Source: Isurus oxyrinchus (lineage: Eukaryota). Taken from it: DNA of 64,000 bases. Made by a program: the position numbers and the translations under genes. Positions 43,600 through 43,720 of the stretch are shown here, piece after piece. Under the pieces are notes generated by a model, which ran no database searches, was not told the origin of the DNA, and saw only the letters and a list, made by a program, of their open reading frames with translations. Positions within the stretch are counted from its first letter, which is position 1. Every line of letters begins with the position of its first letter. The DNA is taken from NCBI GenBank assembly GCA_026770705.1, contig JANJGN010000002.1, forward strand, positions 205,158,001-205,222,000, written 5' to 3'.

Positions 43600-43720
43600 T
43601 ACATGAGAGGCCAATTGCGGCCATCACCGCATGAATAATCCCTATATGCATCACACATGCTGTGCAATTCTGCAAATTCCTTTGGTGCCACGAAAAAAAC
43701 CCGGGCCTCTGTTTAACAGG
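43600..43720 (-). promoter_or_regulatory. Probable SRR2 enhancer orthologue
   Basis: Minus strand CATGTGTGATGCATATAGGGATTATTCATGCGGTGATG versus recalled mouse SRR2 CATTGTGATGCATATAGGATTATTCACGTGGTAATG. Lies ~3.7 kb downstream of the TSS, where SRR2 is expected. Confidence 0.8.

Follow-up and report, generated by a model that had tools for sequence, protein, structure and literature searches.

The sox2 locus

The window, which is the whole 64-kb stretch of DNA that was analyzed, holds a single-exon gene with a 310-aa product, as seen in Table 1. The top PDB matches of this protein were SOX2, and its 90% cluster had 12 members, with all nine named ones (9/9) being chondrichthyan Sox2 or HMG-box proteins. 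It was identical to a shark Sox2 at 309 of 310 positions and to that of a skate at 306 of 310. These matches identify the gene as an elasmobranch sox2, most likely that of a shark. The N2/SRR1 5' enhancer is likewise found at the locus, with an orthologue at 49898-50030 on the minus strand, about 2.6 kb upstream of a conserved 5' block at 47362 that we take to mark the start of sox2. The corresponding distance in the mouse is greater, roughly 4 kb. By eye, 28 consecutive bases of the N2/SRR1 orthologue (49978-50005) were the same as the ATTA-1/2 oligonucleotide of PMC3413107, and its ATTA-3 POU site kept 13 consecutive bases and diverged at the 3' end. Also, a perfect octamer, ATGCAAAT, adjoining a GC box was seen by eye in the sox2 promoter region at 47460-47470 (minus strand), as was a CCAAT-type motif near 47415.

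Table 1. Positions of the sox2 gene, the SRR2 core, and the motifs in and around it
Feature	Position	Strand	Remark
sox2 CDS, single-exon, 310 aa	46208..47140	-	Likely SRR2 target gene
Conserved SRR2 core, 24 bp	43632..43655	-	15 bases as in mouse, an extra G, 8 bases as in mouse; by eye
Octamer-like POU site, ATGCATAT	43644..43651	-	Identical to mouse SRR2; motif scan
Position of mammalian Sox half-site and spacer	43652..43658	-	ATGTGTG, mouse CATTGTG
E-box CATGTG overlying the Sox position	43654..43659	.	Motif scan
TAATCC (GGATTA on minus), K50-homeodomain-type	43636..43641	+	Also in mouse core
GCATGAATAAT, like the Brn2 site of the CRH promoter	43629..43639	+	10/11 bases; weak lead
Upstream anchor block	43674..43683	-	9/10 bases as in mouse core; by eye
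Nearest strict Sox site, TATTGT	43735..43740	-	~85 bp upstream of octamer
Run without listed difference, this organism and organism B, 404 bp	43559..43962	.	

A shark orthologue of SRR2

In the mouse, SRR2 lies on the 3' side of Sox2, about 4 kb from its start. The initial annotation had proposed an orthologue of this enhancer here, and several comparisons bore this out. The mouse core, given in PMC3413107 and PMC5438634, was aligned by eye to the minus strand, which from 43659 to 43632 reads CATGTGTG ATGCATAT AGGGATTATTCA and agrees with the motif letters, octamer position, and GGATTA annotated earlier. From 43662 to 43622, 34 of 41 columns were identical (by eye): four identical, three different, 15 identical, a 1-bp gap, eight identical, and then seven of the last ten, where the three differences are all transitions. 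The 23-base pattern common to shark and mouse occurred once in the window and in none of 100 shuffles; its analytic expectation is 1.5e-8, uncorrected for having chosen the pattern with both sequences in view. An 18-base version was found once in the 4.98-Gb genome, and its reversed control had no match. Additionally, a 21-base stretch of a mouse SRR2 primer from the literature matched only 43642-43662, ungapped and with three mismatches (0/100 shuffles). The core is on the same strand as sox2, 2557 bp beyond its stop; the distance to the conserved 5' block is 3711 bp. It corresponds in the shark to SRR2, the 3' enhancer of Sox2, and judging from these matches we regard the orthology as secure.

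Like SRR2 of mouse and human, the element is 3' of Sox2 and in the same orientation, with the octamer ATGCATAT, then AGG and ATTATTCA, and the upstream GAATTT block. It differs from them in lacking CATTGT, in having an extra G between the octamer and ATTA, in having CATGCG for CACGTG, and in lacking the upstream TAAT cluster.

A chance similarity or a sequencing artefact is extremely improbable as an explanation. A 19-base version of the pattern does have 15 matches in a very large metagenome collection, but all 15 had unrelated flanks, with local scores of 33-41, so short pattern matches evidently arise by chance at that scale. The shark match is single-copy in its genome, has matching flanks, and sits where it would be expected relative to sox2 in side, distance, and strand. 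The same bases are also present in a second species, as described next.

Conservation of the bases in a second species

The run search covered 24 runs from two organisms. Four of these were compared over 43300-44000, and three (X2, X5, and X9) gave one contig each that spanned the site, with no listed difference in the 404-bp run of Table 1. X5 and X9 are from a related species (organism B) and from two studies; X2 is not independent, since it is the same sample as the likely source. The raw reads of X22 provided no test of the base, with none placed at ~3% read. It had been recognized from the start that the extra G might be an error or a private variant. This is excluded by X5 and X9, since the organism B contigs list no difference at the Sox position.

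Six listed substitutions (one common to X2) and two deletions distinguish organism B, all outside 43559..43962; X5 and X9 were counted with seven differing letters, of which six places are listed. Against uniform placement, the clean run has p ~0.009-0.04, a post hoc value of low power on a 699-bp basis. It is suggestive only, and the run is the probable extent of constrained DNA. The 23 bases that are identical between shark and mouse also point to constraint. Just outside the element, at 43558, X2 and both organism B contigs have G on the plus strand against A in the window, which reflects either a heterozygous site or an assembly error.

POU octamer and flanking motifs

As the initial annotation stated, the POU site is retained, with an octamer identical to that of the mouse. 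By itself the octamer is ordinary: there were seven matches in the window vs 3.6 expected, and 12 of 100 shuffles reached seven. Downstream of it lies TAATCC, which we take to be the K50/OTX consensus and which has a background of 0.06 per 100 bp. OTX proteins may use this GGATTA/TAATCC as a putative site. For the 5' enhancer of Sox2, PMC3413107 reports no significant repression by Otx2.

Where the mouse has a downstream E-box, CACGTG, the shark has CATGCG, and this change creates GCATGAATAAT on the plus strand. The CRH promoter Brn2 site used for comparison is that of PMC1935007. The pattern GCATNNNTAAT was mildly above chance, with seven matches vs 3.5 expected and 5 of 100 shuffles reaching seven. 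Within 43540-43800, the only TAAT was at 43636-43639 and there was none upstream of the octamer, so that the TAAT cluster found upstream in the mouse core is without a shark counterpart. That cluster is probably the ATTA-4 Brn2/Emx2 site, going by the published text. A NORE was considered and rejected, with its consensus missed at 3 of 11 specified positions.

Absence of a canonical half-site at the Sox position

The canonical CATTGT half-site that abuts the mammalian octamer is missing, as had been claimed: the shark has ATGTGT in its place, and organism B does likewise. The last four bases of ATGTGTG are in register with the octamer, but the TTGT core reads GTGT. The initial annotation attributed the break to one extra G. 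The half-site is indeed broken, but the extra G is only one of two alignments. Read without a gap, the position has three adjacent substitutions relative to the mouse. Read with a gap, it has the extra G but also requires, in compensation, that a C be lost four bases upstream if the CAGC anchor is to be retained; with a lone G insertion and no C loss, the upstream matches drop to 1/7 (by eye). To retain the anchor thus takes three neighboring substitutions in the one case and two 1-bp indels that offset each other in the other. Neither alignment leaves the TTGT core intact. The initial annotation also overlooked another extra G, which lies between the octamer and ATTA, where the shark has AGGGATTA vs AGGATTA in the mouse. 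It shifts TAATCC 1 bp farther from the octamer than in the mouse.

The canonical Sox-Oct composite with 0-bp spacing gives strong Sox2 cooperation (PMC3367189), and TTGT is the Sox core (PMC3203875). The shark site resembles this composite in having the octamer, with TGT and the spacer in canonical register. However, since the TTGT core is broken, it is not a canonical composite by sequence. A possible explanation is that the composite is degenerate but functional, with the shark half-site recruiting SoxB1 through POU contacts, perhaps at lower affinity. There is a single mismatch to a degenerate composite, TGTG is conserved, the register is correct, with ungapped matches that put the octamer at the canonical distance from the Sox position, and Sox2 cooperates strongly on that spacing (PMC3367189). 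Yet that one mismatch to the degenerate Sox-POU pattern falls within the TTGT core, the first base is also unlike the mouse, and one-mismatch matches to this pattern are at chance level (2 found vs 1.76 expected). We therefore consider a functional degenerate composite rather unlikely.

No other Sox site was found close by. A search for WTTGT within 43540-43800 found none nearer than ~85 bp to the octamer, and the distal TATTGT is unremarkable because such sites have a background of 0.48 per 100 bp. The CATGTG E-box is a lead only, because CANNTG sequences abound in this region (1.1 per 100 bp). The E-box, a T-box-like hexamer, and the distal TATTGT were all rejected as evidence, being background-level or untested motifs.

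Proposed function

Mouse SRR2 shows telencephalic transgene activity and Brn2/Emx2 binding (PMC3413107), is co-occupied by SOX2 and BRN2, which prefer the canonical composite, in neural progenitors (PMC3578749), and causes adult neural stem cell defects when deleted (PMC13307697). Its deletion leaves Sox2 levels in ES cells undiminished (PMC4265674), and it is inactive in morulae (PMC12338974). Since the POU site is kept and the neighboring Sox site is absent, shark SRR2 likely acts on sox2 in neural progenitors as an enhancer driven by POU factors, with direct Sox2 feedback weak or absent. We give this reading a probability of roughly 0.6. A POU factor would bind the octamer without a cooperative Sox partner; candidates are Brn1, Brn2, and Oct6 in neural progenitors and, possibly, Pou5f1/Pou5f3 early in embryogenesis. 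The TAAT just downstream of the octamer would be used by a homeodomain protein or another POU protein. Sox2 would not be cooperatively recruited, whereas in mammals Sox-POU cooperativity at SRR2 leads to Sox2 autoregulation there.

The established neural roles of mouse SRR2 argue for this reading. Against it, TGTG in exact octamer register would fit residual cooperative Sox binding, and the mouse upstream TAAT cluster appears to have no equivalent in the shark. Also, because SOX2 and BRN2 co-occupy mouse SRR2 and prefer the canonical composite, the neural activity in the mouse may need the very Sox site that is absent in the shark. N2/SRR1 is a POU-dependent Sox2 enhancer that is SoxB-independent according to the title of Iwafuchi-Doi 2011. 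Shark SRR2 may follow a similar logic, although N2/SRR1 has its own position and sequence.

Age of SRR2 and direction of the change

Two papers place the origin of SRR2 in amniotes or in mammals, with conservation reported only to chicken or platypus, and conservation of N2 is reported to fish. A shark orthologue implies an element as old as jawed vertebrates that in frog and zebrafish has either been lost or diverged, and the sequence supports dating SRR2 at least to crown jawed vertebrates. Non-coding elements that survive in sharks and were lost in teleosts are a familiar pattern.

Between a gain of the Sox site in bony vertebrates and its loss in the shark, we lean slightly toward gain, with two lineages compared. 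It is a tentative proposal, at somewhat less than even odds, that the shark has kept the ancestral state, in which SRR2 started out early in jawed-vertebrate history as a neural enhancer run by POU and homeodomain factors independently of Sox, and that a change of two or three bases on the line to amniotes made the Sox half-site. If true, this change installed a Sox2-POU feedback loop on Sox2 itself. Another possible explanation, which also falls a little short of an even chance, is that the jawed-vertebrate ancestor already had the composite, which then decayed in elasmobranchs. Such a loss is compatible with a POU-driven mechanism. An exact site should be mutationally easier to lose than to gain, TGTG could be a remnant, and the pluripotency-supporting activity of POU5 dates to the gnathostome stem (PMC9492771). 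However, the flanking 23 bases are invariant between shark and mouse, so a selective loss of the feedback site alone would need explaining.

The initial annotation suggested, with loss in sharks as its alternative, a narrower version of gain, in which a single 1-bp deletion turned a POU/OTX element that predates pluripotency into a pluripotency autoregulatory element. Taking one G out of the shark motif does yield CATTGTG, and CAT and TGTG both align when gapped. This reading did not hold up well and we consider it improbable, since the gapped alignment needs a second, compensating indel for the CAGC anchor, the ungapped one has three substitutions instead, and a comparison of two lineages gives no polarity. 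Predating pluripotency was also unsupported. Chondrichthyan POU5F1 and POU5F3 are broadly expressed in early catshark embryos and partly rescue Oct4-null mouse ES cells, so shark POU5 already supports ES self-renewal (PMC9492771), and SRR2 is dispensable in ES cells (PMC4265674). Together with the use of the composite by SOX2-BRN2 in neural progenitors (PMC3578749), these reports indicate that the mammalian Sox half-site is not pluripotency-specific.

A search of the full-text literature, which leaves most subscription papers outside its scope, found no report of a chondrichthyan SRR2. Further sources are PMC5007870, PMC8019947, PMC3024949, 10.1101/2024.09.19.613943, and 10.1101/2023.11.09.566464; no SRR2 alignment as text was found in the supplements of PMC8019947 and PMC3024949. 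Public multi-species alignments may already show the shark element, and figures or bioRxiv supplements may show conservation across several species. Within the literature searched, this deep orthologue has gone unremarked, although the enhancer itself is well known, and its difference at the best-known site of that enhancer is real. As a natural Sox-less allele, it offers a direct test of how a feedback loop is gained or lost in an old enhancer by a few bases. Its importance is limited since ES cells do not need SRR2 to express Sox2.

Other sox genes

Paralogous SRR2 copies were sought in eight ~10-kb stretches beside five sox genes, named from their translations (both sides of sox3, sox1, and a sox19/15-like gene; downstream only of sox14 and sox21). 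The best scores, 18-32, fell within the range of shuffled maxima (22-36), and no paralogous element that could serve as an outgroup was found in these stretches. Two loci on small contigs, L019 (G000:C66) and L020 (G000:C205), encode an identical 340-aa Sox1-like protein. Compared position by position, these 3579-bp loci had 1179 mismatches, an unaligned count that indels inflate, and they are possibly an uncollapsed haplotype or a recent duplicate. A fourth SoxB1-like gene of 298 aa, L023 (G000:C33:2619558-2620088), is probably a sox15/sox19 ohnologue, a name that we infer.
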